DNA of 64,000 nt from a virus. Of this stretch, positions 19,843 through 46,185 are shown piece after piece. The notes under the pieces are model-generated. The model saw only the letters and a program-made list of their open reading frames with translations. It was not told where the DNA came from and did no database searches. Made by a program: the position numbers and the translations under genes. Positions within the stretch are counted from its first letter, which is position 1. Each line of letters starts with the position of its first letter. The stretch covers positions 1-64,000 of the IMG/VR virus record IMGVR_UViG_3300032046_000016; one strand, 5' to 3'.

Positions 19843-21198
19843 CTACGCCACGCTCACGCGGCGAGCGTTCGCGTGCAGCTTCTCCCACGGAATCTGGAGC
19901 GCCACCAGGCAGCGCATCAAGAAGTCGTACGTCCCGCGGGTGATCGCCAGCGGAATGTAGGCCATGAAGTTCGCCTGGGGCTGCCCCAACGGGTCGAGCA
20001 TGCCGACCAGCGATGCCCCGCGAGCCGGATTGCGATTGATCAGGAAGATCACCTCATCGCCGGCGTCGAGCGGCTTCTGGTTGGCGGCGTGCGGAGGCGC
20101 CGTGTACCCGCCGGTGTCGTCGAACGTGACCACCCGCGCCAACGGGTTGCCGTCCGCGTCGTAGGTGTTGGCGGGAATGACCGCCAGCAGCGTCTCCGTG
20201 CCGCTGGCCGTGCCCCGGAACACCTTGTAGAGGATGGCATCCGCGTCGTCGTCCCACGTGAGGCGGATGGTCTTGTTCGGGTTGGCGGTCGTGGCGTCGT
20301 CCTCGACCGCGGCCACCTGCTCGCCCCTCTGCGTGACCGACGCCACGCGATAGAAGAACTGCGTCGCGTCGGGCAGCGTGCCGCCGGCGACGGCTGCGGC
20401 GGAGAGGTTCCCCGGCTTCGCCACGCCGGTCGGCTTCACGTAGCTCGTTTCCAGAATGACCACGCCGCGATATGTTGACATGCGCATTCCGCCCTCGAAC
20501 TCCACGTCGGGCGTCTCCCGGCGGGCGAGGGTCTGAAGGCCGCTCACCTTCGAGTGCATGCCGATGCTCATCATGAACATCAGCGGGTCCTTCGCCGTGC
20601 CCCTGTACGGCGTGGCCGCGTCGATCAGCTCGTCCAGGACGCTGAGCGCGACGACCCCGTTCACGTCGAAGACGTTGGTCTGGGACAGGCGGTCGAACCC
20701 GTTGTACTGGTACGGGTCGCCGGACGCCGCGCCACCACCCGAGACGTCCTTCTCACCCGTGCTCCCGGAGGCGCCCCAGATGGTGCAGAACTCCAGCATC
20801 TCGCTGATGCTCTCCACGCCGGCGCCCTGCTCCAGGAGCAGAGAGTCGAAGAACTTCTTGCTCGCGCCCATCTGGAAGCCCGAAACCGAGCCCCAGTAGT
20901 CGTCGATCTTCAGGGTGACGGTGGGGCGATCGAAGGTCGACGCGCCAGGGCTGGTCTCCTTCGCCAGCTCGCCCTCGAAACGGGCCTGCTGACGCGCCGT
21001 GCGCCGCACGATCTCGTGCACCCGGGCCGTGGCCTGCGTCCTCTCAAGCAGGGCTACCAGCGGATTCTGGCTCAGAAGGTCCTCCACGAGGACCTTCTCC
21101 AGGTCTTCCGCCTGGAGAGCGGCACCAGAGCCGGAAGCCGCCGTCAGCGCCTTGATGAGCTCGCTGGTGGCCCCTTGAACCTGCGCGCTGGGGGGCAT
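19843..21198 (-). CDS. major capsid protein with inserted FN3/Ig-like domain
   Basis: KALT...ALQAEDLE N-arm, FEGE, YNGFDRL, YRGVVIL motifs; follows scaffold; strong RBS. Confidence 0.88.
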   Translation of the reverse strand: MPPSAQVQGATSELIKALTAASGSGAALQAEDLEKVLVEDLLSQNPLVALLERTQATARVHEIVRRTARQQARFEGELAKETSPGASTFDRPTVTLKIDDYWGSVSGFQMGASKKFFDSLLLEQGAGVESISEMLEFCTIWGASGSTGEKDVSGGGAASGDPYQYNGFDRLSQTNVFDVNGVVALSVLDELIDAATPYRGTAKDPLMFMMSIGMHSKVSGLQTLARRETPDVEFEGGMRMSTYRGVVILETSYVKPTGVAKPGNLSAAAVAGGTLPDATQFFYRVASVTQRGEQVAAVEDDATTANPNKTIRLTWDDDADAILYKVFRGTASGTETLLAVIPANTYDADGNPLARVVTFDDTGGYTAPPHAANQKPLDAGDEVIFLINRNPARGASLVGMLDPLGQPQANFMAYIPLAITRGTYDFLMRCLVALQIPWEKLHANARRVSVA

Positions 21199-21277: not shown

Positions 21278-22828
21278 CTACTCGACCCGCACCCCGAACA
21301 TGATGCGGTTCAGCGCGCCCAGCCTCTCACGCGGGGGCAGGGCGTCCAAGCGCTTGCGCAGGGCGGTCTCGGCCTCGCTACCCTCGGCCTCCGAGCCCTC
21401 CCCTTCGGGAGGGCTACCGCCGAGGCTCTTGTAGACCGGCCGGCGGGCCTTCGCAATCTCGCTACGGACGACCTTCGCCACGTCCACGAGGGTGAGCGGC
21501 GCGTCTCCGTTCTGACCAGTGTCACCAGCCGCGGCGGCGGGAGCCTTCTCCCCGGCATCCTTGGGCACCAGGCCGGTCCCCTTCGCCACGTCCACGATGG
21601 CGCCCTGAAGGTCCTGCACCCAGGCAACCAGCTCCTTCATGGCGTCGCGGATGCCCGTCGCGTCGACAGCGCCATCGGCGCGCTTCTCCACGGCGGGAGC
21701 CGGCGTACCGTCGCCATCGGCCTTCTGGGTAGAGCCCTCCTCGAGCAGGGCGAGCATGGCCTTCACGCCCTCCTCGATCTTGTCCATGGCGCTCTTGATC
21801 TCGATCTGGGACTGCTTCGAGAAGCGGGCTCCCCGCTTCTCGATGTCGCCCAGCGTGAGACCGCTCATGGCGACGACGGCTTCCAGAGCCCGCTTCGAGG
21901 TGTCGGTCAGCTCCTCGCTGCCGGCCGCCTTCTCCGGCTTGTAGACGGTGGCCGCGTTCTCGAAGGCGGCCAGCCACCTGGAGTTGAAGTCGCCCAGCGC
22001 CTTCTTCATGAGGTTGCCGCGCTCGTCCGTCTTGACCTCCGCGGCCTTCAGGATATTGAGCGAGACCTGGTGCAGAGCGTCGCTCAGCCGCCAGAACTGG
22101 CTCGTCGCCTCCTGGCCAGCGATCAGCCCGGCGAAGTCGGTCTGCTTCGCCACGCCACCAGCCGGCGCCTCGGCCGCAGCCTTCTGGACCGCGGCTCCCT
22201 CACCAGCCGGCGCGCCCTCACCAGCCGGCGCTCCCTCACCGGTCGGCGCGCCCTCAGCGGCCGGAGCGGCAGCGGGAGCGCCCTCGCCGGCCGGAGCGCC
22301 CTCAGCACCCTTGGCCGCTTCGCCCTCGCCCTCGCCCTCACCTTCGCCGTCGCCACCCTTCTTGGTGGGCTCCGGATAGCCGTACTTCGGCTTCTCCTTC
22401 GGCTTCTTCGCCTTGCCCGCGATGGCGGCGCGCAGCGCCTTAACCGCCTCCTGGAGGGGAGCCGGCAGGGAGTCGAAGACCTTGTCGAGCTGCTCGACAG
22501 CAGCCTTCACGGCCTTCACCTCGTCGTCCCCGAGGTCGCCGGCGGCCTTGCTCACCAGCACATCGAGGGCATTGGTGATCTCCACGGCCGCTTCCTTGCT
22601 TAGCTGGTCACCCTCGACCAGCACCGCCAACCCGCGGCCAATGGAGGCGACCTGGCCAGCCAGGTCCTTGGGGTCGGTGTCCAAGTCCGACATTCTCGCG
22701 CCTCCTTCTTGTCTGCGCTTCACGACCCACCAGTCCTCACCCAGGGCTGGCACGTCTACTAGGTCCACCCCACTGACGTGGAGATCGACCAGCTCTCCGA
22801 CTTCATCGGGCTTCTTCGCGTCAGGCAT
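21278..22828 (-). CDS. capsid scaffolding protein (N-terminal protease-like VDLVDVPA strand)
   Basis: Acidic helical protein with APAGEG repeats upstream of MCP. Confidence 0.7.
   Translation of the reverse strand: MPDAKKPDEVGELVDLHVSGVDLVDVPALGEDWWVVKRRQEGGARMSDLDTDPKDLAGQVASIGRGLAVLVEGDQLSKEAAVEITNALDVLVSKAAGDLGDDEVKAVKAAVEQLDKVFDSLPAPLQEAVKALRAAIAGKAKKPKEKPKYGYPEPTKKGGDGEGEGEGEGEAAKGAEGAPAGEGAPAAAPAAEGAPTGEGAPAGEGAPAGEGAAVQKAAAEAPAGGVAKQTDFAGLIAGQEATSQFWRLSDALHQVSLNILKAAEVKTDERGNLMKKALGDFNSRWLAAFENAATVYKPEKAAGSEELTDTSKRALEAVVAMSGLTLGDIEKRGARFSKQSQIEIKSAMDKIEEGVKAMLALLEEGSTQKADGDGTPAPAVEKRADGAVDATGIRDAMKELVAWVQDLQGAIVDVAKGTGLVPKDAGEKAPAAAAGDTGQNGDAPLTLVDVAKVVRSEIAKARRPVYKSLGGSPPEGEGSEAEGSEAETALRKRLDALPPRERLGALNRIMFGVRVE
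22196..22350. repeat. coding low-complexity tandem repeats (GEGEGE / APAGEG)
   Basis: About 18-nt imperfect repeats within the scaffold gene. Confidence 0.75.
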
Positions 22829-22836
22829 ATCCGCTC

Positions 22837-23214
22837 CTAACGCTTCTTGCGCTTGCCGTTGTTCTCGACGAGCGCCACATGGACCTCATGTATGCTGGCG
22901 GCAATCTCTCGCAGGGCCGGCATCTCGGCATCGGAGTGCGCCTTCAGCGCCGCGATGAGCTCGGTATGCTGCACTTCTGTTGCCTCCAGCCTTCTCAACA
23001 GCTCGGTGATGAACGCCTCTCTGATCTCGGCCTGGCGCCTGGCCTCCGCCATCTGTTCCTTGACGAACTCCTCGAACGCCAGGCGCTGGCGTTCTGTGAC
23101 GACCTGATTGTTGCGCACCACCCACGTGAACACCCCCGCGAGCACCAGGGCGGAGAGGAGCGTGCCGCCTTCCTTCAGCGCCTCGTACCCGAAATCGAGC
23201 ATGACCAATGTCAC
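22837..23214 (-). CDS. membrane-anchored coiled-coil protein (BhlA/holin-like architecture)
   Basis: One N-terminal TM segment followed by a coiled coil. Confidence 0.5.
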   Translation of the reverse strand: MTLVMLDFGYEALKEGGTLLSALVLAGVFTWVVRNNQVVTERQRLAFEEFVKEQMAEARRQAEIREAFITELLRRLEATEVQHTELIAALKAHSDAEMPALREIAASIHEVHVALVENNGKRKKR

Positions 23215-26200
23215 TTGATCTCGGACCGCTTTCTGGGTATGCGGCGCGCCCGGCCCTCAATGCTGAACCCGGTCCGCTCACCCTTCTTCACGCGCTCCCA
23301 CTCGCGCGGATCGTTCACTCGCACGCCCATGATCCAGGTGCCCTTGACTACCTTATGCAGCTTGCCATCGGTTCCCTCCAGCTCGAAGTCTGTCGGTGCC
23401 AGGTAGCTCTCGACGACCCGGAGCCTCGGGTCGTCGTACACGTGCATAACGCCGATCTGCTGGAAGCGCTCCATAAAGCCGTGCGCCGCCTTGCGGATCT
23501 CCTCGGCCTTGACCACCTCGTCCTGGAGGTCGATGTACGGCCACGGCTTGAGCACGGGCCCGTAGACCAGGTGCTCCTCCTCGACCGCCTTGATGATCAG
23601 CATCTTCAGGACGATGCGGCTCTCGACGGCCTTCGCCTTCAGATCGACGAGCTTCGGCTTCTCCCCAGGCTTTGCCCACACCAGCCAGTGATCCCCGCGC
23701 TTCCGCCTCTCGTCTGCCACCTCGTCGAGCGTCTTCGTATCGGCGACTGGCGTTTCATCCTCAGGCCACTGAGCCAGCCAGAAGCGCTCGCCGGTGGGTC
23801 GGGGGACGGAGCTGATCACCAGCCGGCCCTTCATGTCGCCCTTCTCGTCCTTCAAGAAGAGCTCGAAGCTGTGGCGGTGCCACACGCCCATGTCCCAGGT
23901 GCCGTAGGCGACGGCGAACAGCATGCCGTAGGTCTTGGAGCTGGCGCCGGCCTCGCCAGGCTTGAAGACGGCGGGCTTGCCTCGCCCGACCTTCAGCCAC
24001 TCGACGGGCGGCGGGCCGTACCAGGTGCATTGGAAGCTGGGCGCGTGGTCGGCGGCGAGGAACTCGTCGGTCCCGTCGTCGTCGGTGTCCGGCTTGAAGA
24101 TGACGGGGTGAAACATGAGCTTGGGGCTGAACTGGCAGCGCAGGTCGCCGTGGTAGCGGTAGCCGGCCTTGCGCAGGTCGGCCTCGCTCTTGCCGGCGTC
24201 CTCTTCCTTGATGCCCATGTAGTGGTGGTGATAGACGAACTGGCCCGTGCCGCTGGGCGGCCACATTCTCTGCCAGTCGGTCTCCCAGAGGCGCAGGAAG
24301 CGCTCACCCCGCGACTCGCCCTCGCCCTGCTTCAGGAGGTGGATCAGCCCGATGTCGGGGACCTCGAGCAGCTCGAAGTCGGCGTCGGCGATCTCCGGGC
24401 AGGTCACTTGTCCAGACGTCTGGACTTTCTGCTTGGGCTCCTGGAGGACGTGGGCCCGGCGGGCGATATCGACCGCTTGGTTCGCGTAGTAGGCGTCCTT
24501 CCGGCTGATGTCCCGGTCGATCACGGTCGGCACGACCCAGTACAGGATCGGCTTCCCGTCCTTATCGGGACCGCTCACCAGCTCCTGGACCTGGACGGTC
24601 AGGACGGCGCCCAGGGGATAGGTGCCGTTGTCGCTGACGCCGCCGACGTCGATGTACTCCCGGCCGTCGTACTCCTGGAGGTTCGTGTAGCTGTCGCGTC
24701 CGTGGAGCAGCCCGCAGGTGTAGGTCTTCGAGCCGCCGGCGTTGTCCTTGCTGTCGATCACCGTCACCTTCAGCTCGGTGACGTGCTTCACCTTCGACCA
24801 CTCGTTCGTCGACCCGCCGATGCCATAGGGACCGTCGAGGGTCTTCACCATGGCGCCCTCGGACATGGCGACGGCGCTCGCCTTGAGGATCGCCGCGTTC
24901 ATCTGCGCGCGGTCGTGAACGATGGTGGTGCTGGTGATAGCGAAGGCGGCCTTCCCCTTCAGGTTCTTGGCGTAGAACTCCTCCAGGGCGGTGCGCCGCT
25001 CGGTCCACGGCTTCTCGTGCAGGTCCTCTTCCCGGTAGGGCAGGTCGAAGACGGTCAGCACGACGGTGGCGCCGGCCAGGTCGGGCTCGTCGGCCAGGAG
25101 CGGGTCGAGCTCGGTGCGAGGCAGCCGCTTGCCATCCCGTACCATGCCCATATCGCAGTCGAGAATGTAGTCGCCAGGGATGGCGAGCAGCATCTTCGCC
25201 AGGTCGGGGAAGACCTTGGCCCGGTCGCGGATATTCTCGAAGGCGATCTCGACGCGGCCGCCCGCCTTCTGCACCACCGTACGGTAGCCGTTGAACTTCA
25301 CCTCGACGTCGAGGCCGCCGGCGATGCGGTCCTTTGCCCAGTGATCCCAGAGCTCCGAGCTGGACAGGAACTCCGTGTACTCGGCGACCGCCGGCTTGGG
25401 CGGTATCCACTTGCCGAAGGGCTTCAGGGCGACCTTCTCCAGGTCTTCGGCCTGCAGCGCCATCCCAGAGGGCGAGTCGGCGGTCAGCGCCTTCGTCGTG
25501 GGCTTCACGGCCCGGAGGCGCCCGCGGACGTGAACCGTCTCCCAAAGGCCCGGCTCCTCGAACGTCTCCTCCTCAAGGTCCAGGATCTCGAACTCGGCAG
25601 TAGTGCCAGCCTCCTCCCGGAGCTTGGGGTCGGCGTAGAACTGGAAGCTCAGCTTGTTCCAGTAGCTCTTGTGGGTCGGGTCGGCGAAGGCGCCCTCGCC
25701 CTGCGTGCTCGGTACCTCGAAGGCCAGGACGCCGCCGGACTTCAGCACCCGCCAGATCTCGCCCATGATGGCGACCTGGTCCTCCAGGTGCTCCAGGAAG
25801 TGCCAGGCCCGTACCTCGTCCACGCTGCCGTCGGGCCAGGGGATGCCCTGGCTCAGGTCGTGGACGACGTCCGGCTTGACGTCGGCCCGGGCGTCGATAT
25901 TCACGTAGCCGTCCAGCTTCTCCTTCCCGCAGCCCAGGTTCAGGCGCACGGGCCCAGCCTTCTTCAGCGTGACCACCGCGCGCTCTTCCACGGGACGCAG
26001 CACCAGGTCGTACAGGGGAACGTAGTCGGAGTGGGGGCCGGAGGCGCTGAACACGTGATGCAGCTCGGGCTTGCCGCTCTTGCCTGGGTCAACCTCCTTC
26101 CGCATCAGGATGGTCAACCCTTCTATCAGGCCGGCGTTGTGGTCGCACGCCTCAAGCCGGTAAAGCAGGTCTACGTCTCCGGGCTTCGAGCCGTTGCCGC

Positions 26201-26534
26201 CGGCCTTGATCGCCAGGACCTCGTCGGCCGACTGCACCGCCGAGCCGACTATGCTCACGAAGTGAGGGACGACCAGGACGGGATCGGTCAGCCGCTTCAG
26301 CACGCTGTCGTGCTTCATGCCCCGCTTGTCCATCTCGGCGACGATCCCAGCGTGGAGGGCGCGGCAGCGCTTCTGGCTCAGCGGCTTCTCGTGGACAAGG
26401 ACCTCGTTGCCCTTCTTCAGCTCGGCCCACCAGATATGCGTCAGGCGGTGGTCAGCGACAAGCCCGCCATCCGATACCTTCGACGGGTCGAACGTGTCGA
26501 TGTCCTTGATCTTGGCGATGTCCACAGCATTCAT
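23211..26534 (-). CDS. polyprotein: NTase-like + SAM methyltransferase + ATP-dependent DNA ligase + LigD-PE-like + XkdF-type prohead protease
   Basis: VSIVGS...GDVDL; LNLGCG...HFLEHL...EIWRVLK; EVKFNGYR, VFDL, EGAMVK, WSKVK; FVYHHH...HGDLR; VYGPVL.P...DLQDE...VVESY...GTW...TGFSIEG. Start could be 26573. Confidence 0.85.
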   Translation of the reverse strand: MNAVDIAKIKDIDTFDPSKVSDGGLVADHRLTHIWWAELKKGNEVLVHEKPLSQKRCRALHAGIVAEMDKRGMKHDSVLKRLTDPVLVVPHFVSIVGSAVQSADEVLAIKAGGNGSKPGDVDLLYRLEACDHNAGLIEGLTILMRKEVDPGKSGKPELHHVFSASGPHSDYVPLYDLVLRPVEERAVVTLKKAGPVRLNLGCGKEKLDGYVNIDARADVKPDVVHDLSQGIPWPDGSVDEVRAWHFLEHLEDQVAIMGEIWRVLKSGGVLAFEVPSTQGEGAFADPTHKSYWNKLSFQFYADPKLREEAGTTAEFEILDLEEETFEEPGLWETVHVRGRLRAVKPTTKALTADSPSGMALQAEDLEKVALKPFGKWIPPKPAVAEYTEFLSSSELWDHWAKDRIAGGLDVEVKFNGYRTVVQKAGGRVEIAFENIRDRAKVFPDLAKMLLAIPGDYILDCDMGMVRDGKRLPRTELDPLLADEPDLAGATVVLTVFDLPYREEDLHEKPWTERRTALEEFYAKNLKGKAAFAITSTTIVHDRAQMNAAILKASAVAMSEGAMVKTLDGPYGIGGSTNEWSKVKHVTELKVTVIDSKDNAGGSKTYTCGLLHGRDSYTNLQEYDGREYIDVGGVSDNGTYPLGAVLTVQVQELVSGPDKDGKPILYWVVPTVIDRDISRKDAYYANQAVDIARRAHVLQEPKQKVQTSGQVTCPEIADADFELLEVPDIGLIHLLKQGEGESRGERFLRLWETDWQRMWPPSGTGQFVYHHHYMGIKEEDAGKSEADLRKAGYRYHGDLRCQFSPKLMFHPVIFKPDTDDDGTDEFLAADHAPSFQCTWYGPPPVEWLKVGRGKPAVFKPGEAGASSKTYGMLFAVAYGTWDMGVWHRHSFELFLKDEKGDMKGRLVISSVPRPTGERFWLAQWPEDETPVADTKTLDEVADERRKRGDHWLVWAKPGEKPKLVDLKAKAVESRIVLKMLIIKAVEEEHLVYGPVLKPWPYIDLQDEVVKAEEIRKAAHGFMERFQQIGVMHVYDDPRLRVVESYLAPTDFELEGTDGKLHKVVKGTWIMGVRVNDPREWERVKKGERTGFSIEGRARRIPRKRSEIK

Positions 26535-26542
26535 GACGACAA

Positions 26543-26569
26543 AGACCCCACCGAAAGACGGTGGGGTCT
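26543..26569 (-). terminator. strong hairpin (terminator or attenuator) immediately upstream of polyprotein ATG
   Basis: 11-bp stem AGACCCCACCG/CGGTGGGGTCT, 5-nt loop, short T run. Confidence 0.55.
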
Positions 26570-26616
26570 CCAAGGGACCTCTTCGTTAAGTGCTGGGGAT
26601 CAGATTCAGCGCCAGG

Positions 26617-27707
26617 TCATTGCAGGCGGGCGGCCGTCCTGTTGATCTCGGCTACCAGCTCGTCAAGGGGCACCTCCCAGTAGTGCCAGGCCCCGTGGTG
26701 CTTCTGGCGCATTCGCACCACGATCACGTCACGTCTAAGGCATACCATAAACCAGGGCGCTCCGCAAGCACAATACTGAGCGCGCTCGGCACCCTCTGCC
26801 GGCGGCGTCTCATGGGCCTGCAGCTCCCGCGTCATTGTCAACGATAGGATTCCTGCCCTACCGCTGCCCGCGCGGCCCGGCGTACCTCGCCGACTTCCCG
26901 GGCCGTCAGGCCCCATTCCTGGAGCTGCTCGTCGGACACGCCGTCAAGCTGCTCCCTGGTCAAGGTTGTCAGGCCACCGCCCAGCTCCACCACGTCGCCC
27001 TTCCAGCAGTCCATCAGGCGCTGCCGCAGGCGGGGCCGGATGCCCATCTCTTCCAGAAACGACGTGTCGTCCCGCCGGCTGACGGGATACGTCTTGACGA
27101 TCTTCGCAGCGCTACCATCAGGCACGGCTGGCCTCCTCTGCCGGTTCTCTACCGCCACCGCCGCTCTCACCCTTCTCAAGGCGCGGGCCCCAATCCTCCG
27201 CGCGCTCTTCGACAGGCACGGCCATGAGCACGCGGCAGCGAAGGCAGGGCACCACGTAGAAGGTCGATGGCTCCCCCGCCGTCGGGCCGAAGTCCAGCAG
27301 ATGGAACTCCGACTCGCCCTCGACCTGGACGCTATGCAGGTTCGGCCGGTGGCCGATCAGGACGCACAGCAAGCGCTTAAACAGATTCATGGCCTCGCTC
27401 CCTCTGCGGCCAGCTCCTCGGGCTCGTCGGCGGTGACGTGCAGGGCGGCGGCCGGCAGTGGTGGAAGCATCTGGACGTCAGCCGCCTCTGCGGGCGCGGC
27501 ATGGAGCATCACCGCCGTCATGGCGTCGATCTGCGGGTTCCGGGCGCCATCGAGCAGACCGAGCAACGTCATGCCCGTGACGGTCCAGCCGGACGGCCAG
27601 CAGCCGCGGATGATGCGCTCTGCCGCCTCCGCGTCGTGGACGATGAAGGGTGCCTCCGCCACGACACTACCGTCCTGGTCGAGAACCTTGAGCACATGCA
27701 GCTCCAC
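26617..27707 (-). other. cluster of four small hypothetical ORFs (26617-26835, 26838-27179, 27118-27390, 27387-27707)
   Basis: Overlapping coupled ORFs, some with CxxC motifs, behind their own promoter. Confidence 0.5.
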
Positions 27708-27870: not shown

Positions 27871-28887
27871 TCAGGCAGAGCGCCTCTGGCCGCTCCAAGG
27901 AACCTCCGGGCGGTCCCAGGCACAAGGATCGGCAGCGGCCTTTCGCAGCAGCTTGCCCACGCCAACCCAGCAGCGACGCGAGAACGGCGACACCCTGCAG
28001 CGGCAGCGTGGGTGTAGGGGAGGATGATCGTGGCCGCTCGGAAACATGCCCCCGAAATGGGCGCTGGGAGGCGACGGCGCCAGGAGGCCGGACCGGAGAG
28101 GCACCGCGCCGGCCGCCTCGTTGTCCCGGCAGCGTGAGCAGGCGCCAAACTGGCAGATCCACTCGACGTACTCCACGCCGTTCTGCTGGAAGGTCATCAG
28201 GCGGCCGATCTGCCGCGTGCGCTTCAGCTCGGTCCTGGCGATCAGCTCGGCGCGGTCCCGGTTCTGAACGATCTTGTCTATCTGGCCAGTCATGCGCTCC
28301 GGCCCGAAGTTGCCGGACAACCCGCGGAGGATGGAGTTGGCGATGGAGCGGCGGGTCTGCTCACGGATTCCCTTGATGCTGGAGCCCACGGTCAGCGACA
28401 GCATGCGCCGGATCGCTGGGTCGCGGAGAACGAAGCGCTCGGGCGGGAAGCCCTCGCCCTTCGGGCCCGCCTTCTTGACGTCCTGAGCGGTGTAGCCCAG
28501 CTCGGTCAGGGCGTCGGCGCCGCCCCGCTGGAAGCCCAGGATCGCGTCCAGCGCCAGGACCGTTCCCATCTTGGCCCACAGACGCTGCGCCTCCTCGCTA
28601 TCGTCCCAGGCTGCCAGCAGCCCCTCGATGCGGCTGCGCGTCGAGTTGGGCGACAGGCGCACCCATTCCTCGACCGGCATCGAACGGCGCAGCTCCGCGA
28701 ACAGGCGGAGGACACCGAGGCCGGCCTTTACCTCGTGGGGCTCAATCAGGTCGCGGGGTTTCGGGCGTGTGGGGAGCGGAAGACGGTAGCGTTGCTGGGG
28801 CGTCGCCGCCTTGAGGATGTCAGTCGCCGGAGGGCTGAGAGTCGTGGTCCTGTGCCTCCCTTCGGCGATAGCCGTTACGCTCTCCAA
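27871..28887 (-). CDS. MuF / SPP1 gp7-like head morphogenesis protein
   Basis: RAELIARTE, C..C and PPLHPRCRC motifs. Confidence 0.9.
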   Translation of the reverse strand: MESVTAIAEGRHRTTTLSPPATDILKAATPQQRYRLPLPTRPKPRDLIEPHEVKAGLGVLRLFAELRRSMPVEEWVRLSPNSTRSRIEGLLAAWDDSEEAQRLWAKMGTVLALDAILGFQRGGADALTELGYTAQDVKKAGPKGEGFPPERFVLRDPAIRRMLSLTVGSSIKGIREQTRRSIANSILRGLSGNFGPERMTGQIDKIVQNRDRAELIARTELKRTRQIGRLMTFQQNGVEYVEWICQFGACSRCRDNEAAGAVPLRSGLLAPSPPSAHFGGMFPSGHDHPPLHPRCRCRVSPFSRRCWVGVGKLLRKAAADPCAWDRPEVPWSGQRRSA

Positions 28888-29122: not shown

Positions 29123-29268
29123 ACCGCCACCGCCTCGGGAGACCGGTTCCTCTTTATCTGTTGCAGGAGAAGCCGTAGCGCGCATTGCAGGCACACGTAC
29201 TCTTCCTCAAGAGGGTCGAAGTGCAGATCGCCGCCGCACTTCGGGCAGGCCTTCAGTACGAGCCTCAC
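29116..29268 (-). CDS. small zinc-ribbon protein
   Basis: CPKCGGDL...CLQC; GTG start overlaps portal stop. Confidence 0.6.
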   Translation of the reverse strand: MRLVLKACPKCGGDLHFDPLEEEYVCLQCALRLLLQQIKRNRSPEAVAVC

Positions 29269-30908
29269 ACCGCTAGCTGAAACAGCTCCTGCAGGTCCGC
29301 GCTCGCCGCCTTCTTCGTAGCCGCATCCACGCCGGCGTCCCGGAGGTCCTGGATCACGCTGTCGAAGTACCAGCGGATCTCGCCCTCGGTGTCCAGCTCC
29401 TGCATCGCCTTCTCGACCGCCACCTTCAGCGGGTCGGGAACCTGCGAGCTCAGGAACTTGCGCCGGCGGCCCCGCTCGCAGTCCTTGAGCGCGGCCCTCT
29501 TCCAGCGCCGCATCTCGTCCAGGACAGGCTGAGCGGCGTCGGCCTTCTGCGCCTTGCCTGCGCCCTCGGGCTGCACGAAGAGCGGAGTGGCCGCCTCGCC
29601 AGCCGGCACGAGGCCCTGATTCATCAGGAACGTATCGCCGCCCTCGTAGGGCTCCATGCCGCGCTTGGCGCGCCACTCGTTGCGGGTCTGCAGGCCGGAG
29701 CCGACCGCGCTCACGCCGACCGCCACCTCGTCGCTTTCCTTGGCGAAGTCCGGAACCTTGAACTGGATGCGCCAGCCCTTGATGCCCTTCCGCCAGAGGC
29801 GCCACATGTTCAGCGTCGTCTGCACGATCTCCTGCATGGGCTTGGCTTCCATCCAGTACAGGATCTGCTCCAGGCCCTCCAGGTTCGCGCGGTTGACGTC
29901 CTCGACCATGCCAAGCACGCCCGCCGATGCGCCCACGACGGACAGCATCTCGTTGCGGCTGAACGTCCGGCCCTTCAGGTACTCCGAGTCGCGGCCCGGA
30001 CCTGGACCGCTCACGAAGCTCTTGTAGTCGACGCCACCCTTCACGACAACGGCGTCGCGGTTGGCGTTCTCGACCCCCGCATACCAGGCCTCGATCTTAG
30101 CCTCCAGCGCTGCGAAATCGTCGTCCTCGATGTCCTCGGGCGCTGCCCACATGCCTGGTGGGGTGCGCTGATTGCGGAACGAGTTCTTGTTCCACGCCTG
30201 GGCGTACAGATCGGTGATAGCGGCGATGCGCAGCGACTCCAGGTCGGAGGCGGTCCACCGTCCCTCGATGTCGGGCACCTGGAAGTTCAGCACCTCGTCG
30301 ATGGCAAACTCGGCGGCTTTGCCCTCGAAGTACTGGATGTACGCCTTCTCCAGGTTGGGGAAGTAGCCCTTGGCGTCCACCATCGGCACCACCCGCCCCG
30401 GCATGACCACGAAGTCGATCTCGTCGCCGAAGCCGTTCTTGACGATCTCCCACGAGCAGAGGTTAAAGAGCTTCAGCCGGGCGAACGTCAGCCAGAGCTT
30501 GTGCACGGTGAGCTGCCACTGGCGGACGTTAATCACGGGCCCCTGGAGGTCGGGGTTAAAGAAGGTCCGCAGGTAGGCGCCAGCGTCGGGGTCGGGGTCT
30601 TCACCCTCTTCCAGCTCGTCGCGGGCCTCGACGATCTCCAGCGGCTGCGCCACGCAGATCAGGGCGATGCGCCGAATGGCGGCGCGCACCCAGGGTAGCG
30701 ACCGCCACAGGGCGACGAGCTCGAAGTGGCTGATCTGGGCGCTGCCCTCATACATGGCAGCCATCCCAGCGCCAAGCCCGTACAGGAAAGGTGGCCGCAT
30801 GAAGCTGCGCGGCTGCGGCGCGGACTTCGGCGATGGCGTCGCCGCCTTAATGACGCGCCGCTCGTGGCCAGGAGGAAGCCAGAGCTCAACCTCAGTCCCT
30901 GTCGTCAT
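29265..30908 (-). CDS. portal protein
   Basis: HK97-type portal motifs (WVRAAI, FRNQRTPPG, EDVNRAN, TRNEWRAKRGMEPYEGGD). Confidence 0.92.
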   Translation of the reverse strand: MTTGTEVELWLPPGHERRVIKAATPSPKSAPQPRSFMRPPFLYGLGAGMAAMYEGSAQISHFELVALWRSLPWVRAAIRRIALICVAQPLEIVEARDELEEGEDPDPDAGAYLRTFFNPDLQGPVINVRQWQLTVHKLWLTFARLKLFNLCSWEIVKNGFGDEIDFVVMPGRVVPMVDAKGYFPNLEKAYIQYFEGKAAEFAIDEVLNFQVPDIEGRWTASDLESLRIAAITDLYAQAWNKNSFRNQRTPPGMWAAPEDIEDDDFAALEAKIEAWYAGVENANRDAVVVKGGVDYKSFVSGPGPGRDSEYLKGRTFSRNEMLSVVGASAGVLGMVEDVNRANLEGLEQILYWMEAKPMQEIVQTTLNMWRLWRKGIKGWRIQFKVPDFAKESDEVAVGVSAVGSGLQTRNEWRAKRGMEPYEGGDTFLMNQGLVPAGEAATPLFVQPEGAGKAQKADAAQPVLDEMRRWKRAALKDCERGRRRKFLSSQVPDPLKVAVEKAMQELDTEGEIRWYFDSVIQDLRDAGVDAATKKAASADLQELFQLAV

Positions 30909-31053: not shown

Positions 31054-31287
31054 TCACCCGCCGCCACCGTTCCGCTTTCCCTGTTGCTGTGCCTTCTCAG
31101 CGACCTCGGCCGCCAGCCGGCGATAGGTCGGTCGGGCGGCCACGACGTCCTGGCAGTGGCGCAGGGAGAACATGAAGTGAACCGGATCGCTCGGGGATTG
31201 CTGGGGCAGTTGGGAGAAGGCGGTCCAGGCGGCCGTTAGGTGCTCAAGAAGTGCCTTCTCAGCGTCGGTCAGGCCAGTCTCGCTCAC
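31054..31287 (-). CDS. hypothetical protein
   Basis: Coupled to terminase stop. Confidence 0.5.
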   Translation of the reverse strand: MSETGLTDAEKALLEHLTAAWTAFSQLPQQSPSDPVHFMFSLRHCQDVVAARPTYRRLAAEVAEKAQQQGKRNGGGG

Positions 31288-32867
31288 CTTTTCCCTCCCA
31301 AGACCCGGAACTCGGCCTCAGCGGGGAACCCCTTATCTACCCCCACACAGCCGTATGATACAGCATCACAACCGTGATCGGGATTGCTTCCGGCAACATT
31401 CTCCGCAGGCTGCTCGCCGTAGGTCCCATCGGGAAGCTGTACCCTGTGCCACACCTCCATCTCTTCGGCCAGGCCCGGCACTCTCGGGTGCACCTTGAAC
31501 CGGCGGTAACCGCTGTTGTCGCGGACGAAGCGCCGATAGACCGACACGCGATCGAGGATTCTCACCGGCTTGCTGAGGTCCCGGACCCGGCAGCGCTTTC
31601 GGATACGGTAGGCCGTCTCGGGTGAGCTGGGGTCGCCGTAGGAGACCCGCGGCTTCCTGTACGGGCCCCGCCGCTCGCCGCTGCGCGGGTCGCGGCAGAA
31701 GAAGCGTTCCTCCTTCTCGAGCGAGCCGTCGTGCACGTAGTCGAGGACCTCGTCGATGTCGTGCTGGGTGACGTAGACGCCGTCGAACACGTGGACGTCG
31801 CCGTTCTTGCAGAACTGGCACCAGTAGAGGACAAACGGGTCGGTGAAGCCGTAGTCCCAGCACCAGAACGTGGGGCCGGCCTCCGCGTCGTACTCGGCCT
31901 CCTCCGTCACGTTGCCGTCGGGCAGGACCGACCAGTTGGGCACCACCAGCCCCTGCCGCGACCCTCTTCGCACAAGGTACTGGACGATCCAGGTCTCCTC
32001 GTCAACCTCCTGGTGCCTGTGCAGGATATCTTCAAGCCTCAGGTGCCCACGGCTGTTTCGAACCCGGCCGCCGCACTCGCTCGGCTCGCGCCACAACGGG
32101 CAGCTCGGCGGCTCCAGGACAATCCCCCGCTTCACCCTCTCGGCGTCCTCACACATCGGGCAGGGCCGCATCGCCTCGTACACACACCAGCGGTAGACCC
32201 GGCGCCCACGCGCCGGCGCCTCATTGATGATCCGCTGCATCGTCCCGTGGACGGTCCGCAGGGCGCTCGTGATGATCTCCTGGAGCGGCACCTCGTCGCT
32301 GCTCAAGGGCATCCCCAGGAACTGCTGATAGACGTCCCACGGGCAGAAGTCGGCCTCGTCCAGCAGGCCGCGCTGCGGGTGCGGGCCCGACACACCGGTT
32401 ATGGTCCCGGGCAGGATCGCCACGAACGAGCCGTTGCGATACGTCGTCTTCCTCATCGTCGGCAGGGTCAGCGGGTCGCGGCGGAACGGCTTCATCTGGA
32501 AGTACTCAAGCAGATAGCCGTAGCCGAGCTGCGCCTGAGCCAGGATCGAGCCAACGTGGTTCGTCCCGCAGCGTTCGCGGAACCGGCTGTTCAGGTGGTC
32601 GAGGATCGACAGGTTCCTGGTCTTGCCGCCACCGCGCGGGCCCACGACGGCCGCGGATCGGAAGCGGTCGAAGATGGCGTCGGCCATGAAGTCGAGGGGC
32701 GCGACGTGGTCCTCGCAGACGGCCGCGTAGTCGATGTCAAACCCGAGGTGCTGGCTGACGTAGTGGAAGAGGTGCTCTCTATTCCTCGGCCGGATCTCGG
32801 GCAGGTGGTGCAGCCAGTCTGGGGGCCGACCGCCCTGTGCGGTTCTCGTAGAGGGCGCGGTAGGCAA
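31284..32867 (-). CDS. terminase large subunit (start uncertain)
   Basis: Walker A GPRGGGKT, Walker B LLDEAD, nuclease WDYGFTDP and DHGCDAVSY. Confidence 0.92.
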   Translation of the reverse strand: MPTAPSTRTAQGGRPPDWLHHLPEIRPRNREHLFHYVSQHLGFDIDYAAVCEDHVAPLDFMADAIFDRFRSAAVVGPRGGGKTRNLSILDHLNSRFRERCGTNHVGSILAQAQLGYGYLLEYFQMKPFRRDPLTLPTMRKTTYRNGSFVAILPGTITGVSGPHPQRGLLDEADFCPWDVYQQFLGMPLSSDEVPLQEIITSALRTVHGTMQRIINEAPARGRRVYRWCVYEAMRPCPMCEDAERVKRGIVLEPPSCPLWREPSECGGRVRNSRGHLRLEDILHRHQEVDEETWIVQYLVRRGSRQGLVVPNWSVLPDGNVTEEAEYDAEAGPTFWCWDYGFTDPFVLYWCQFCKNGDVHVFDGVYVTQHDIDEVLDYVHDGSLEKEERFFCRDPRSGERRGPYRKPRVSYGDPSSPETAYRIRKRCRVRDLSKPVRILDRVSVYRRFVRDNSGYRRFKVHPRVPGLAEEMEVWHRVQLPDGTYGEQPAENVAGSNPDHGCDAVSYGCVGVDKGFPAEAEFRVLGGKR

Positions 32868-33438
32868 CCAGCACCTCTTCCTCGACCTCAGGGGTGGCGC
32901 CAGTCCCAACGAAGACGTTGGTCTGGCTCTGCAGGAAGGTCGGCGGGACCGGGCGCGACGGGTACATTCCCACGTCCTGCCCGATCTCCCATATCTTACC
33001 AAGGACGGTGACCAGGGTTCGCGTGGCGCCGTCTATCTCTTCCATCAAGAAGCCCCCGCGCGCCCCTTCTTCCACCTCCATCGCCCGACCTATCCGGTCG
33101 ATCAAGGACGGCACCAGGCCGCTCAGCACTTCGAGGACGTTGATCTTGACGTCGATGCCGGCGAGCTTCTTCTGGATGAAGCTCTCGGGCAGCATCGCCG
33201 CGTCCGGAACGTGGGCCTCTCGGTAACGCTGGATGCAGCTTCGCCCTGGAATGGCGGCGAGCAGGTCGGGATAGTCGGCGTAGAGCGTGCGCAGGTAGCG
33301 TTCGACGCTGCCCGGCGACCAGCGCGACTGCAGCAGGTCAACGATGTCGTCGCAGAAGGGCGACGCCTCGACGCGGGACACGTGCCGCCCGCCCAACCGC
33401 TGCGGAGCTTTAACGGGTTCTTCGGGGTTCTCTCTCAT
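32779..33438 (-). CDS. probable terminase small subunit
   Basis: Helical protein with HTH-like N-terminus directly upstream of TerL. Confidence 0.6.
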   Translation of the reverse strand: MRENPEEPVKAPQRLGGRHVSRVEASPFCDDIVDLLQSRWSPGSVERYLRTLYADYPDLLAAIPGRSCIQRYREAHVPDAAMLPESFIQKKLAGIDVKINVLEVLSGLVPSLIDRIGRAMEVEEGARGGFLMEEIDGATRTLVTVLGKIWEIGQDVGMYPSRPVPPTFLQSQTNVFVGTGATPEVEEEVLVAYRALYENRTGRSAPRLAAPPARDPAEE

Positions 33439-34172
33439 GCCGCCCCCTTCAGCGGCGCGTAGACCTCCAGCAGCTCGTTCAGACGCTCGTTGATGTCCAC
33501 GCCAGCGCGCTCGCACTCCTCGGCGATGCGCGTGAGGTTCTTCATCGTACGCTCGCTCGCCCTCACCATCAAGTGCGTCCGGCCAGCGTACTTGAACACG
33601 ATGAAGCCCCAGTGCAACTGCTGGCCGTGCTCGGCCGTGATCTGCTTCAGCACCGACGCCAGGTCCTCGACGGTGGTGATTTCCCTCTTCGTCGCATCGA
33701 GCCGCTTGCGGATCTCGGGCGCAAGCTTGGCGCGCACGTCCCGAAACAGGCGCTTGAATTCGCTGTCCTCAGTAACGGCCATCAGCCGCCGTGTGGCGTC
33801 GGGCCCGTACTTGTTCGACAGCTCGAGAAAGACCCTGGTGAAGCCGACTCCGCTCATGCGCCCCTTCAGCATGTTGTCGCGGACCGTCTCGAACTTCCGC
33901 TTGTCCTCGTCGTAGTCGGCGAAGACGATGCAGGGAAGCTCCGGCATCTCCAGGAGCTTGGCGGCGCGCCAGCGATGCTCGCCAGCGATGATCTGGTATC
34001 TCCCGTCCGGCGTCGGCGCCACGCGCAGGGGCATCGTGAAGCCGTCCGCCTTGATGCTCTCCACCAGGGCGGCGAACGCGGCGTCGCTCTCCACGTTCGG
34101 GTTCCACTCGACCGGGTCCAGGAGGTCGACGGCGATCCTCTGCGGCTCCCGGATAGGAGGCGGTTTAGCCAT
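33435..34172 (-). CDS. ParB/Srx N-terminal domain protein
   Basis: WNPN...LVESIK.DGF..P...IIAGEHRWRAAK. Confidence 0.85.
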   Translation of the reverse strand: MAKPPPIREPQRIAVDLLDPVEWNPNVESDAAFAALVESIKADGFTMPLRVAPTPDGRYQIIAGEHRWRAAKLLEMPELPCIVFADYDEDKRKFETVRDNMLKGRMSGVGFTRVFLELSNKYGPDATRRLMAVTEDSEFKRLFRDVRAKLAPEIRKRLDATKREITTVEDLASVLKQITAEHGQQLHWGFIVFKYAGRTHLMVRASERTMKNLTRIAEECERAGVDINERLNELLEVYAPLKGAA

Positions 34173-34359
34173 CGGCAGGCGGCTCCAGCAATTCGTTGCG
34201 CTTCGCCCGCGGATCGTAGCGTTCCAGGGCCTCATCCACCAGGCGCCGGAGCGCCTCCGTGCGGTTCGTTTCCCAATCGACGGCCAGGTAGTCGATCATC
34301 TTCACCTGCCTGGTCGGGAGCCAGACATGAACGGCCTTGTCACCTTTACGCGGACTCAT
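34165..34359 (-). CDS. ribbon-helix-helix regulator
   Basis: VHVWLP...IDYLA...NRTEALRRLVDEAL. Confidence 0.7.
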   Translation of the reverse strand: MSPRKGDKAVHVWLPTRQVKMIDYLAVDWETNRTEALRRLVDEALERYDPRAKRNELLEPPADG

Positions 34360-35755: not shown

Positions 35756-36723
35756 ACCAGGATTTCACCCGCGGCGGCCCTATCGACGTCAGCGGCGAGC
35801 ATCATCTCAATGAGCTCGTCGAAAGAGGTACGCGGCCGCCAGCCAAGCTCCTCGAAGGCGCGCGTGGGGTCGGCGATCAGATTGGCGGTCTCCAGAGGGC
35901 GCTCCCGGGCCTCGTCGTGCTTGACTACCTTCTCGGGGTCGAGGCCCGCCAGGCTGCAGGCCAGCGATACCAGCTCGCCGACCGTTCGACCGACGCCGGT
36001 CCCGATCACCAGGTCCGCCGGCGTGGGCTGCTGGAGCATCAGGTGCACCGCCTCCATGTAGTCGGCGGCGTACCCCCAATCCCGGACGGCCGTCAGCCGG
36101 CCGATGGGCAGGTAGTCGCGGCGGCCGGCCTTAATCTCGGCCAGCCCCTTCGTCACGTGCCTGGTGACGAACTCCGCACCCCGCCAGGGCGACTCGTGGT
36201 TAAAGAGGATGCCCGACACCACGTACATGCCATAGGACCGCCGATAGACGTCGCACATCTGGTGGGCGAACACCTTCGCGCAGGCGTAGGGGCTCACCGG
36301 ATGGAAGGGCGTCGTTTCGCTCTGAGGCGGTGGTGAGTGGCCGAACATCTCAGACGAGCAGGCCTGGTAGACGCGGACCTTGCTCGCCCCCGACTGCCTC
36401 ACCGCTTCCAGCACCCTGACGGGCCCGAGACCGGTCAGCAGCGCCGTCAGCTCGACGTGATCCCAGGAAGCCGGCACGAAGGTCAACGCGGCCAGATTGT
36501 AGATCTCGTCGGGCCCGACCTTCTCAAGGGCGGCGCAGATCGACCACGGGTCGAGTAGGTCGGCGGCCACGAGCTTCATGCCCGGCGCCCGCTGCCGCGC
36601 CAGGGGCTCCCCGTAGCGATCATGGCTGGCCAGCGTACCGAACACCTCGTAGCCCATCTTCTCCAGGTGAACGGCGAGGTACGGCCCGTCCTGGCCGGTG
36701 ATCCCCGTGATCAGCGCGCGCAC
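35752..36723 (-). CDS. gmd: GDP-mannose 4,6-dehydratase
   Basis: ALITGITGQDG, EIYNLAA, SSEMFG, SPYACAK, GILFNHESP.RG.EFVTR, RDWGYA. Confidence 0.95.
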   Translation of the reverse strand: MRALITGITGQDGPYLAVHLEKMGYEVFGTLASHDRYGEPLARQRAPGMKLVAADLLDPWSICAALEKVGPDEIYNLAALTFVPASWDHVELTALLTGLGPVRVLEAVRQSGASKVRVYQACSSEMFGHSPPPQSETTPFHPVSPYACAKVFAHQMCDVYRRSYGMYVVSGILFNHESPWRGAEFVTRHVTKGLAEIKAGRRDYLPIGRLTAVRDWGYAADYMEAVHLMLQQPTPADLVIGTGVGRTVGELVSLACSLAGLDPEKVVKHDEARERPLETANLIADPTRAFEELGWRPRTSFDELIEMMLAADVDRAAAGEILV

Positions 36724-44521: not shown

Positions 44522-45382
44522 TTACCGGCCAATCATTCTGACGGGAACGAACTCGCACTCCTCCGGCAACTTGTCATCGCGCAGCCTCAAGAGCTGCGGG
44601 TGCCGAAGGGCGCCACTGGTGGGGCTCTGGCCATACGCCTTGACCACGCCGACCTTGCCGATGTAGGAGGCGAGCTGCTCGGGCGGGCCGGTGATGCCGA
44701 GCGAGCTCACCACGACCAATCGACCGTCAACGTAGAACCCGTAGCGCAGGTTCCGGTAGCCCAGCTTCTTCCGGTCCTCGGAAGTCGGCAGGCCCTCCAT
44801 GTCTACGATCACGACGTCGAACTCCTGGGTTCGCTTCACCTTCAGCCAGTCCCAGGAGCGCTTGCCGGCCTGGTAGGTCGAGGCCCGTCGCTTGAGCATC
44901 ACGCCCTCGATCCCGTTGTTCATGAGGCACTCGGCCTCGTCCAGGTCAGGCACTCCGAGTACCCGCGACGCCTGCACCAGCAGCGGCTGGTTGGCTTCCC
45001 CTACGATCATCTCGACCACTTGCCGGCGCGTGTCGAGGGGCTGGCTCTGCAGGTCGTGGCCTCCAAGCCGCGGCACGTCGAAGACGACATACCGCAGCGC
45101 CCGGCGCCAGTCGCCGCTGGCATACGCGGACGCCTCGCCCACAGGAACCATCTCGCCGTCGAGGATGGTCCCGGCGGGCAGCACCATGGCGTCGAGCCAG
45201 GCGTGCTCGCCGGTGTGCTCCATCCCCGAGCGGGCGTATTGCCTGGGGCGGTCGGCCATCACCCACACGAGGCGAAAGCCGTCGTACTTGACCTCCATCG
45301 TCCAGCTATCGTCGCCCCAGGGAACCCGTGGCGCCTTCTCCGCCTGCTGCGCGAGCATCGGTCGGAGCGGCAGTCCTGTCAT
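44522..45382 (-). CDS. ATP-dependent DNA ligase (LigC/LigD-ligase-like)
   Basis: PMLA, EVKYDGFR, ILDGEM, YVVFDV, EGVMLK, WLKVK, LRHP.L.RLRDDK. Confidence 0.93.
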   Translation of the reverse strand: MTGLPLRPMLAQQAEKAPRVPWGDDSWTMEVKYDGFRLVWVMADRPRQYARSGMEHTGEHAWLDAMVLPAGTILDGEMVPVGEASAYASGDWRRALRYVVFDVPRLGGHDLQSQPLDTRRQVVEMIVGEANQPLLVQASRVLGVPDLDEAECLMNNGIEGVMLKRRASTYQAGKRSWDWLKVKRTQEFDVVIVDMEGLPTSEDRKKLGYRNLRYGFYVDGRLVVVSSLGITGPPEQLASYIGKVGVVKAYGQSPTSGALRHPQLLRLRDDKLPEECEFVPVRMIGR

Positions 45383-46185
45383 GCGGCTTTCGCCTTCGCC
45401 TGTTGGACGCTCGCGGTCAGGACGCTCATCAGGTCGGCCTCGGCCGTCTCTTCCCGAGCAGCCACCTTGGTGGGCATCGGCTGGCCCATCAACTTGGCGT
45501 CGATCAGGGCGGTCAGGGCCTCACGATACTCGTCCTGCAGACCGTCTATCACATCGCCGTCCTGGGACAAGGCGCCAATAAGCTGCTCGGCAAGCTGTGT
45601 CTCCGCATCGCTGACAGCCACTTGCTCGACCAGGGAATCCAGCTCCGCGACGTTCGCCGCCTCGTCCGCCCAAAAGAGCAGGGAGACGGCCAGGAGCCGG
45701 CCTGCGGGCTCCACCACGCATAGGCTTTCCTTGCCCGTGCCGAAGGCCACCTTGCCCAGGCCCAGGAGCTTCGACCGCGCCATGGCGTCTCGGAGCAGGG
45801 CGAAGGGCTTCTGGCCAGCCTTACCGTTCGCTCCGGGCACCGCGAAGTAGGTCTTCTCGCGCCGCCCGATGGGAACTGAGTCGGCAGGGACGAAGGCGGT
45901 GAGATCGAGGCCGGCACCGCTGGCCAGCGGCAGGGCCTCCAGCTCTTCCGGCTCGAACAAGACCATCTGCTCCTTCGAGACCGGATAGCCCTTGATGATT
46001 TCCGTCTTGTCGGTGATCTCGCGGTCACAGGTCCGGCAGACCGTCGCGGAGTTTACTCGCTGGCCGCAGGGGCGGTGCACCATGTGGAACTTGGCGTCGT
46101 TATCGCGACCAGCTCCATACAGCTTCACCGGCACCGTGACCAGCCCAAACGTGATGGGCAGCGACCGCGTCGCTCTCATGGTCAT
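45379..46185 (-). CDS. ku: Ku DNA end-binding protein
   Basis: ITFGLVTVPVKLY, FHMVH..CG.RV, EIIKGY, DEYREAL..LIDAK, DLMSVL.AS. Confidence 0.95.
   Translation of the reverse strand: MTMRATRSLPITFGLVTVPVKLYGAGRDNDAKFHMVHRPCGQRVNSATVCRTCDREITDKTEIIKGYPVSKEQMVLFEPEELEALPLASGAGLDLTAFVPADSVPIGRREKTYFAVPGANGKAGQKPFALLRDAMARSKLLGLGKVAFGTGKESLCVVEPAGRLLAVSLLFWADEAANVAELDSLVEQVAVSDAETQLAEQLIGALSQDGDVIDGLQDEYREALTALIDAKLMGQPMPTKVAAREETAEADLMSVLTASVQQAKAKAA

Follow-up and report, generated by a model that had tools for sequence, protein, structure and literature searches.

Among the described systems closest to the locus treated here are the polyvalent proteins of phages and conjugative elements, long chains of unrelated enzyme domains that are encoded among phage head genes and predicted to be packaged and then delivered together with the DNA (Iyer, Burroughs, Anand, de Souza and Aravind 2017, PMC5512222). 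The locus lies in the first 64,000 nucleotides of IMG/VR record IMGVR_UViG_3300032046_000016 (this whole stretch is the window), which comes from an uncultured sediment phage. In it, one minus-strand gene encodes a protease and a series of enzyme domains in a single chain. We lean towards reading the product as a head-assembly polyprotein, in which a series of DNA-end enzymes terminates in the capsid-maturation protease; the chain would be carried into the head, leave it with the DNA and act on the entering genome.

As in polyvalent proteins, several unrelated catalytic domains stand here in one chain, in a head-gene context and together with a peptidase for processing. The 'assemblin-like' peptidase of that class is always C-terminal and probably processes the proteins during virion assembly (PMC5512222). 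One relative of the present chain has an ADP-ribosyltransferase (ART) domain, a hub domain of the class and a classic injected effector domain (PMC5512222). Other hub domains (zincin metallopeptidase, SNF2-methylase, ArdC and MuF fusions) are absent from the chain itself, and the same paper does not mention DNA ligase, LigD or uracil-DNA glycosylase (UDG), has 'uracil' once and proposes no loading route (PMC5512222). The same group regards XkdF, the protease family found here, as peptidases that are not related to the S77 prohead peptidase (PMC7824862).

A loading route is described for T4, in which the internal proteins and Alt are built into the scaffolding core via a capsid targeting sequence, trimmed by gp21 and injected with the DNA. 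These proteins include anti-defence proteins, and foreign proteins can be loaded likewise (PMC3012670). In T4, a short N-terminal targeting peptide is carried by separate small proteins, whereas here cargo and protease form one covalent chain, for which loading via a scaffold strand is predicted.

The enzyme part recalls bacterial LigD, which combines ligase (LIG), 3'-phosphoesterase (PE) and polymerase (POL) domains and works with Ku: the ligase is nearest to models of LigD and of non-homologous end-joining (NHEJ) ligases, the PE fold is present with a His/His/Asp/Arg site, and the phage has a Ku of its own. Unlike LigD, the chain has no primase-polymerase and instead a nucleotidyltransferase (NTase)-like domain of ~100 aa. 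It has no match to Pfam LigD_N (PF13298; none in the protein at E ≤ 1, none in the whole record at E ≤ 10), His84 and Tyr88 of PE are replaced, ligase motifs I and III differ, and the same chain includes a capsid protease and a methyltransferase. In the mycobacteriophages Corndog and Omega there are Ku-like and ParB-like genes, and modification enzymes encoded between portal and protease (PMC4351075), but neither a ligase nor a PE is encoded in their head module, and their O-methyltransferase and glycosyltransferases are separate genes whose products were not found in virions.

In cultured phages, the XkdF domain occurs in Lactococcus phage 28201 gp33 and Bacillus phage BMBtp14 gp58, with 39-40% identity to that of the phage studied here and in the same portal-MuF-XkdF-capsid order. 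Their proteins have 349-403 residues, with the domain N-terminal and followed by an Ala/Glu/Lys-rich tail of 180-230 aa. Here, by contrast, XkdF comes last, after ~990 enzyme residues, and a gene of its own encodes the scaffold-like part. In a tblastn search of 50,697 cultured-phage records, none covers more than 13% of the chain.

The polyprotein gene and the head module

The source record (80.9 kb, linear by its ends, CheckV completeness 84%) was assembled from a metagenome. The DNA has 65% G+C, and all open reading frames (ORFs) that pass a GC3/GC2 filter are on the minus strand. Read from its first TTG, the minus-strand ORF 23211-26573 has 1120 codons, a GC3 of 0.91 and a protein of normal composition. 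The plus-strand ORF overlapping it (23208-26645) gives a Leu/Ala/Gly/Arg-rich translation, as antisense frames of high-GC DNA do, and the coding frame is that of the minus strand. Translation likely starts at the ATG at 26534 (residue 14), because this is the first residue of the homologues P0007 and P0010 and because 26541-26573 is taken up by a GC-rich hairpin and T run. Residue numbers count from the TTG at 26573, the numbering of the initial annotation. The hairpin, a 10-bp stem followed by the T run on the minus strand just upstream of the ATG and inside the TTG-started ORF, looks like a terminator or attenuator separating the MuF region from the polyprotein; terminator-like hairpins are no more frequent in this region than in shuffled sequence.

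The head genes stand in the order portal, MuF, polyprotein, small ORF, scaffold-like protein, capsid candidate and head-tail adaptor. This agrees with the initial annotation, which had placed an ORF of ~1100 aa in the protease slot with MuF on one side and scaffold and capsid on the other. The C-terminal XkdF-type protease that it had called is borne out by Pfam (E 1.1e-29, 103.4 bits against a cut-off of 24) and by the PHROG head maturation protease (5.8e-31). Searches of the 80.9-kb record for S78, ClpP and S49 proteases found none, and the XkdF domain is its sole recognisable head protease. The scaffold-like protein has no family match in Pfam or PHROG. By eye, the capsid candidate (19843-21198) has an apparent inserted beta-rich segment at about residues 280-350, and a 572-aa ORF without a Pfam or PHROG match (31284-33002, minus strand) lies where the large terminase is expected.

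From the N-terminus, the domains are here termed N1, N2, methyltransferase (MT), ligase (LIG), OB, PE and XkdF. Their fusion is genuine, and not the assembly chimera that had been named as a way for the initial annotation to fail. An identical protein is recorded on another contig, and the gene is present in four sediment-metagenome runs from different samples. Contigs in two of the runs, which are not the likely source sample, span the N2-MT-LIG and OB-PE-XkdF junctions with no indels. Relatives with the same domain order, hundreds in all, occur in JGI, NCBI, ENA and Logan data. No RNA run is found among the listed sequencing runs that hold the gene.

Domains of the chain

The ligase was recognised by Pfam DNA_ligase_A_M (PF01068) at aa 421-596 (E 3.6e-16, 59.9 bits against a cut-off of 26.2). 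Its closest NCBIfam models are the LigD/NHEJ ligases TIGR02776 and TIGR02779 (1.6e-17, far under the equivalog cut-offs). The motif I lysine, K426, is invariant, R431, E572, K577, K594 and K596 are conserved, and motifs IIIa (FD), IV (SEGxxxK) and V (KxK) are intact and conserved. Residues 601-712, which always accompany the ligase domain in relatives, probably form the OB-type domain; the NCBIfam and PDB ligase alignments extend to aa 606-646.

For PE, residues 740-990 were aligned with ten homologues and then folded (pLDDT 77). A Foldseek search of this model against the PDB returned LigD PE domains as all of the top seven matches, and in VIA-align six PE entries had Z scores of 8.1-11.0, the best with an rmsd of 2.6 over 122 of 124 residues, while the next fold had a Z of 3.1. 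Since phmmer of the PE segment against PDB sequences gave only chance matches, the link to LigD required fold search and profile-profile comparison. In the latter, hhalign against the LigD PE domains of three bacterial genomes gave a probability of 95.9% (E 5.8e-09) and aligned H784, H808, D810 and R812 with His42, His48, Asp50 and Arg52 of the PE site. According to Shuman-lab work, His42, His48 and Asp50 are the metal ligands of PE, with Arg52 beside them (P. aeruginosa numbering). Among 141 representatives with no more than 50% identity to one another, 139-140 retain the four residues. DHPxxY is lost, the Tyr88 position being Trp859 here and Trp in 140 of the 141.

The methyltransferase matches Pfam Methyltransf_11 at aa 236-285 (34.3 bits against a cut-off of 21.2), and the SAM motif LNLGCG at 212-217 (SAM, S-adenosylmethionine) is conserved together with downstream acidic residues. 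PHROG searches are in accord with the Pfam domain calls. Its nearest ESM Atlas clusters are viral Methyltransf_11 proteins of 140-170 aa, a small type typical of phages. It also contains HxxEH, and sugar O-methyltransferases are its nearest, though weak, neighbours.

These results uphold much of what had been read by eye in the initial annotation, namely a class I SAM methyltransferase, an ATP-dependent ligase with KFNG in motif I, and a LigD PE-like domain; profile alignment and conservation show that PPPVEW was also correctly placed as the replacement of DHPxxY. The N-terminal part of that annotation fared differently. The first 192 residues model poorly with AlphaFold2 (AF2), except for a helical hairpin at model residues 11-70. 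This confident hairpin, part of N1, has no Foldseek match, and a DenV/Pyr_excise-like identity, which had been proposed for the helical N-terminus, was dropped as unsupported, there being no Pfam match at E ≤ 1 and no fold match. For N2, the suggested Pol-beta NTase motif is real: hG[GS]x(9-22)DhDh is present as VGS...DVDLL, and G110, D133, D135 and R139 are near-invariant among relatives. The corresponding fold could not be demonstrated by AF2, Foldseek or hhalign: the AF2 model has low confidence (pLDDT 41-63), Pfam gives no match, ESM Atlas gives a weak lead (0.89-0.90), and hhalign against two minimal NTases aligned the motif only, in register, over 26 columns with a probability of 13.9%. 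We thus describe N2 as NTase-like, with its fold unproven. To judge from their conserved motifs, the enzyme domains of the chain look functional.

Relatives and predicted docking on the scaffold-like protein

In IMG/VR, 330 loci encode a relative of the chain. Among species-representative genomes only two carry the long form, both of them metagenome-assembled genomes. Domains of the relatives were called with hidden Markov models (HMMs) cut from our alignment. Throughout, the recurrent order is N1-N2-(MT)-LIG-OB-[insert]-PE-XkdF, and some chains are shortened to as little as N1-N2-PE-XkdF. A Pfam tally over 39 chains gave XkdF in 36, DNA ligase in 31, UDG in 27 (it is missing from the chain of the phage studied here), Methyltransf_11 in 17, Dam methylase in 4, metallo-beta-lactamase in 3, 2H phosphoesterase in 2, and ART and an HK97-type Peptidase_S78 in one each. 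Where present, XkdF terminates the chain, except in a few loci with C-terminal tails of 140-275 aa.

When PE and XkdF together (368 residues) were searched against the full library, 152 cluster representatives matched at E ≤ 1e-30 and 2387 at E ≤ 1e-10. The best matches mostly span PE and XkdF together, at the C-terminus of proteins that are 339-2038 residues long. The commonest architectures among 146, with XkdF written as PRO, are N1-N2-LIG-OB-PE-PRO (24), PE-PRO (24) and N1-N2-PE-PRO (19); that of the phage studied here, N1-N2-MT-LIG-OB-PE-PRO, accounts for 17, and PE-XkdF alone exists as proteins of 339-405 aa. From this search, the architecture counts and the conservation of the PE site, PE-XkdF is the constant core of the family by sequence comparison, and the remaining domains are exchangeable cargo. 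The survey of XkdF fusions for variable cargo that the initial annotation had suggested thus led to hundreds of uncultured phages, with UDG, Dam, metallo-beta-lactamase, 2H and ART among the cargo. We found no description of a PE-XkdF polyprotein family in the literature; the design is common in metagenomes, and the concept of a packaged multi-enzyme chain was already predicted in 2017 (PMC5512222).

Several relatives depart from the usual gene structure. In L074 (4883-12658), intein domains lie within the ligase and PE, and in P0012 an intein lies in the methyltransferase after the PxHK motif (Hint, LAGLIDADG and HNH domains); such insertions suggest sites under strong constraint. L010 (record G003, 75.9 kb) is split, P0017 comprising N1, N2, a 2H phosphoesterase, a methyltransferase and a P-loop kinase, with a ligase-OB-PE-XkdF gene 6.7 kb away. 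In L008, L022 and L069 the chain is divided between two ORFs with an overlap of a few codons immediately ahead of PE, which may be a frameshift (programmed or a sequencing error) or a true split.

A BLAST search with the head proteins of the phage against the related loci gave almost no matches, so synteny was read from Pfam positions. In most of 25 long related records, the gene immediately upstream of the XkdF-bearing frame is MuF. On the other side of the polyprotein, the scaffold-like gene has a good ribosome-binding site and then, near the N-terminus of its product, a strand motif of the form LVDLHVSGVDLVDVPA; in some relatives the XkdF chain itself ends in a similar VxFVDLVE motif. With a small HMM, this motif was searched in the 1.5 kb after the polyprotein stop of 58 related loci. 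It falls within the first 2-35 codons past the stop in 40 of them and, in the arrangement seen here, 96-132 codons downstream in three more, and thus opens the next gene in 43 of 58. In two further loci it stands in cis in the XkdF chain, and there are no matches elsewhere in the searched 1.5 kb. The motif is missing after the XkdF domain in the two cultured-phage proteins and is therefore not universal to XkdF.

For XkdF (985-1120) with residues 1-70 of the scaffold-like protein, a complex model gave a score of 0.86, while the best of three controls gave 0.00; 58 of 80 solved complexes reached the mark used for this score, as did 2 of 110 mismatched pairs. Runs share at least 66% of contacts, the partner having a pLDDT of at least 48, and the modelled contact sets scaffold residues 8-35 against XkdF 1003-1044 and 1098-1119. 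The XkdF domain and the scaffold-like protein are thus predicted to associate, which would be a plausible loading route for the chain. Coordinates of all features are given in Table 1.

Table 1. Features of the head module, the polyprotein and the Ku-ligase pair, with positions in the window.
Feature	Residues	Position	Strand	Basis or remark
Polyprotein gene	1107 aa from ATG 26534	23211..26534	minus	ORF open from TTG 26573
N1, conserved helical hairpin	20-92	26298..26516	minus	AF2 pLDDT 83-92; conserved in relatives
N2, small domain with Pol-beta-type NTase motif VGS...DVDLLYR	96-200	25974..26288	minus	Conservation
Class I SAM methyltransferase (MT)	206-357	25503..25958	minus	Pfam Methyltransf_11 (3.7e-08) and motifs
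ATP-dependent ligase nucleotidyltransferase domain (LIG)	385-600	24774..25421	minus	Pfam, NCBIfam, motifs
Probable OB-type C-terminal ligase domain (OB)	601-712	24438..24773	minus	Conserved with ligase in relatives
LigD 3'-phosphoesterase-fold domain (PE)	776-940	23754..24248	minus	Fold search, structural alignment, hhalign
XkdF-type head maturation protease domain (Pfam PF14550, Peptidase_S78_2)	993-1112	23238..23597	minus	Pfam, PHROG
Portal protein		29265..30908	minus	Pfam/PHROG
MuF-like head morphogenesis protein		27871..28887	minus	Upstream of polyprotein
Small ORF, hydrophobic segment then charged helical region	125 aa	22837..23214	minus	Between polyprotein and scaffold-like gene
Scaffold-like protein, Ala/Gly/Glu-rich, GEGAPA repeats	516 aa	21278..22828	minus	Composition, position
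N-terminal strand motif of scaffold-like protein	8-35	22724..22807	minus	Complex model; conserved gene arrangement
Major capsid protein candidate	451 aa	19843..21198	minus	Weak PHROG major head protein matches; position
Ku homologue		45379..46185	minus	Pfam Ku (4.3e-33 / 2.5e-31)
Stand-alone ATP-dependent DNA ligase	286 aa	44522..45382	minus	Pfam (5.7e-22); start overlaps Ku stop

Proposed fate and role of the enzyme chain

Under the reading that we lean towards, we infer that the chain is encapsidated, cleaved, ejected and active on the entering genome. The gene order suggests that it would be made late, with portal, MuF, scaffold and capsid protein. XkdF would then bind the scaffold-like N-terminal strand and the whole chain would co-assemble inside the procapsid, as the complex model and the conserved gene arrangement predict. 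Once there, the protease would digest the scaffold and may also cut the linkers between domains, in keeping with the behaviour of prohead proteases. By analogy with the internal proteins of T4, the enzymes would remain in the head and exit with the DNA at infection, and the domain set, with UDG in most relatives, suggests that they would clean and seal nicks or ends of the incoming genome. Their specific purpose may be circularisation, or repair of restriction or CRISPR cuts.

Several observations weigh against these steps. The tail channel would have to let through a chain of 1107 residues, or folded enzymes 20-35 kDa in size. Proteases of the HK97 type digest themselves and their fragments leave the head, a fate that the cargo could share. 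The phage expresses a Ku and a canonical ligase from its own genome, so that a packaged ligase is not obviously needed, and Ku is absent from 25 related virus records, nine of which are at least 90% complete. Within the chain, ligase motif I is non-canonical (KFNG, that is KxNG and not KxDG; 12 of 13 relatives have Asn there), motif III is LDCDM in place of DGE and lacks a conserved Glu, both traits being family-wide, and PE has no equivalent of His84, the position being Pro855 here (rare), Gln in 105 and His in 9 of the 141 representatives. In Corndog, the modification enzymes encoded between portal and protease were not found in virions (PMC4351075).

The docking result is itself ambiguous. 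In L053 and L074 the strand follows XkdF in the same chain, and the result may thus mean a split domain and not an evolved interface. In either case, the predicted association would let the scaffold take the entire chain along into the procapsid. A bolder proposal, possible although we doubt it, is that the protease fold or its docking site is split between two genes and that the scaffold strand completes or clamps XkdF, loads ~100 kDa of cargo and activates the protease only inside the shell. Accompanying the genome, the ligase and PE, which may be pre-adenylated, would mend its nicks or ends in the first seconds of infection, PE-XkdF being an ancient core to which UDG, methylases or ART are added as exchangeable parts.

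The main rival to packaging and delivery is quality control in the producing cell, which we consider unlikely, if a serious contender. Tethered to the procapsid or released into the cytoplasm, the enzymes would mend DNA while it is being packaged, by nick sealing and 3'-end trimming and, in relatives, by removal of uracil, with no delivery to the next host. T4 packaging is disturbed by nicked DNA, and both the DNA-directed domains (ligase and PE, and UDG in most of the tallied relatives) and the expression with head genes that the gene order implies would suit such a role, but fusion to a protease inside the shell would be an odd route to cytoplasmic enzymes. Moreover, the Corndog head-module enzymes missing from virions (PMC4351075) speak for action in the producer, whereas the ART and Dam methylase cargo of relatives fits delivery better, and the docking model would place the chain inside the procapsid.

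We judge it improbable that the chain is mostly a structural relic, that is, inert bulk or DNA-binding inner-head protein (an inner body or ejection plug) in which catalysis is lost or irrelevant. The deviant ligase motifs I and III, the missing His84 of PE with Pro in the phage studied here, the low-confidence N2 model and the existence of PE-XkdF alone in short proteins would be expected of a relic, but retention of the metal-binding His/His/Asp and Arg across deeply divergent representatives and invariance of the ligase lysine and of motifs IV and V would not, and the inteins point to strongly constrained sites in ligase, PE and methyltransferase.

Even less probable is an RNA repair kit, in which host tRNAs cut by anticodon nucleases would be mended by the ligase together with an end-healing domain and a Hen1-like ribose methyltransferase. 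The 2H phosphoesterase of two relatives, the P-loop kinase of P0017 and the HxxEH motif of the methyltransferase, with its weak sugar O-methyltransferase neighbours, are set against a ligase of the DNA-ligase/LigD type with an OB domain, the DNA enzymes UDG (in most relatives) and Dam methylase (in some), and the lack of any Hen1 match at E ≤ 1 in the NCBIfam search. Finally, we give practically no credence to an artefact of assembly or annotation, with separate genes merged through a chimeric contig or an overlooked stop: although the record is metagenome-derived and L008, L022 and L069 are split into two overlapping ORFs, 1120 codons stand open at high GC3, contigs from other sediment samples cross the junctions intact and the architecture is common to hundreds of relatives from different sources.

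The stand-alone ligase next to Ku has canonical KYDG and DGE motifs, and its PDB ligase matches include the Mtb LigD ligase domain 1vs0. The pair points to end joining of a linear genome in the phage life cycle. Work by Pitcher and colleagues from 2006 reportedly described the phage Ku of Corndog and Omega and the use of host LigD for genome circularisation. Since Ku is missing from the 25 related records, it belongs to this phage and not to the family as a whole; as a family-wide partner it was dropped from the general mechanism, and the two-gene pair is likewise absent from those records. Its separate presence lets one ask which ligase joins the genome ends.

Other genes in the window, all on the minus strand, include an SbcC/Rad50-like ATPase of 696 aa and, after it, an SbcD/Mre11-like metallophosphoesterase of 396 aa (57643-60920), three proteins with a ParB N-terminal domain (33435-34235, 40401-41309 and 46450-48108), two of them with a ParB HTH domain, and, at 61784-62845, a strongly matching (8.3e-63) DUF5131 protein of the phage Gp37/Gp68 family. 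A sugar-modification cluster lying just past the head module (35752-38669) comprises GDP-mannose 4,6-dehydratase, a DegT-type aminotransferase and a methyltransferase; it could modify capsid or DNA and recalls the glycosyltransferase and O-methyltransferase genes of the Corndog head module.

The PE domain of this family, with a near-invariant metal site in a LigD-PE fold that lacks the canonical His/Tyr pair, constitutes an unstudied branch of its superfamily. DNA-repair enzymes borne in capsids are known mainly from giant eukaryotic viruses. If the chain is packaged, many uncultured tailed phages would carry their own DNA-repair enzymes in the capsid, and if the split-domain proposal is true, this would amount to a virion-borne DNA repair system of tailed phages. 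Packaging would also mean that large foreign proteins are naturally loaded in a simple way, fused ahead of a protease that docks on the scaffold, which would be usable for engineered phage delivery.

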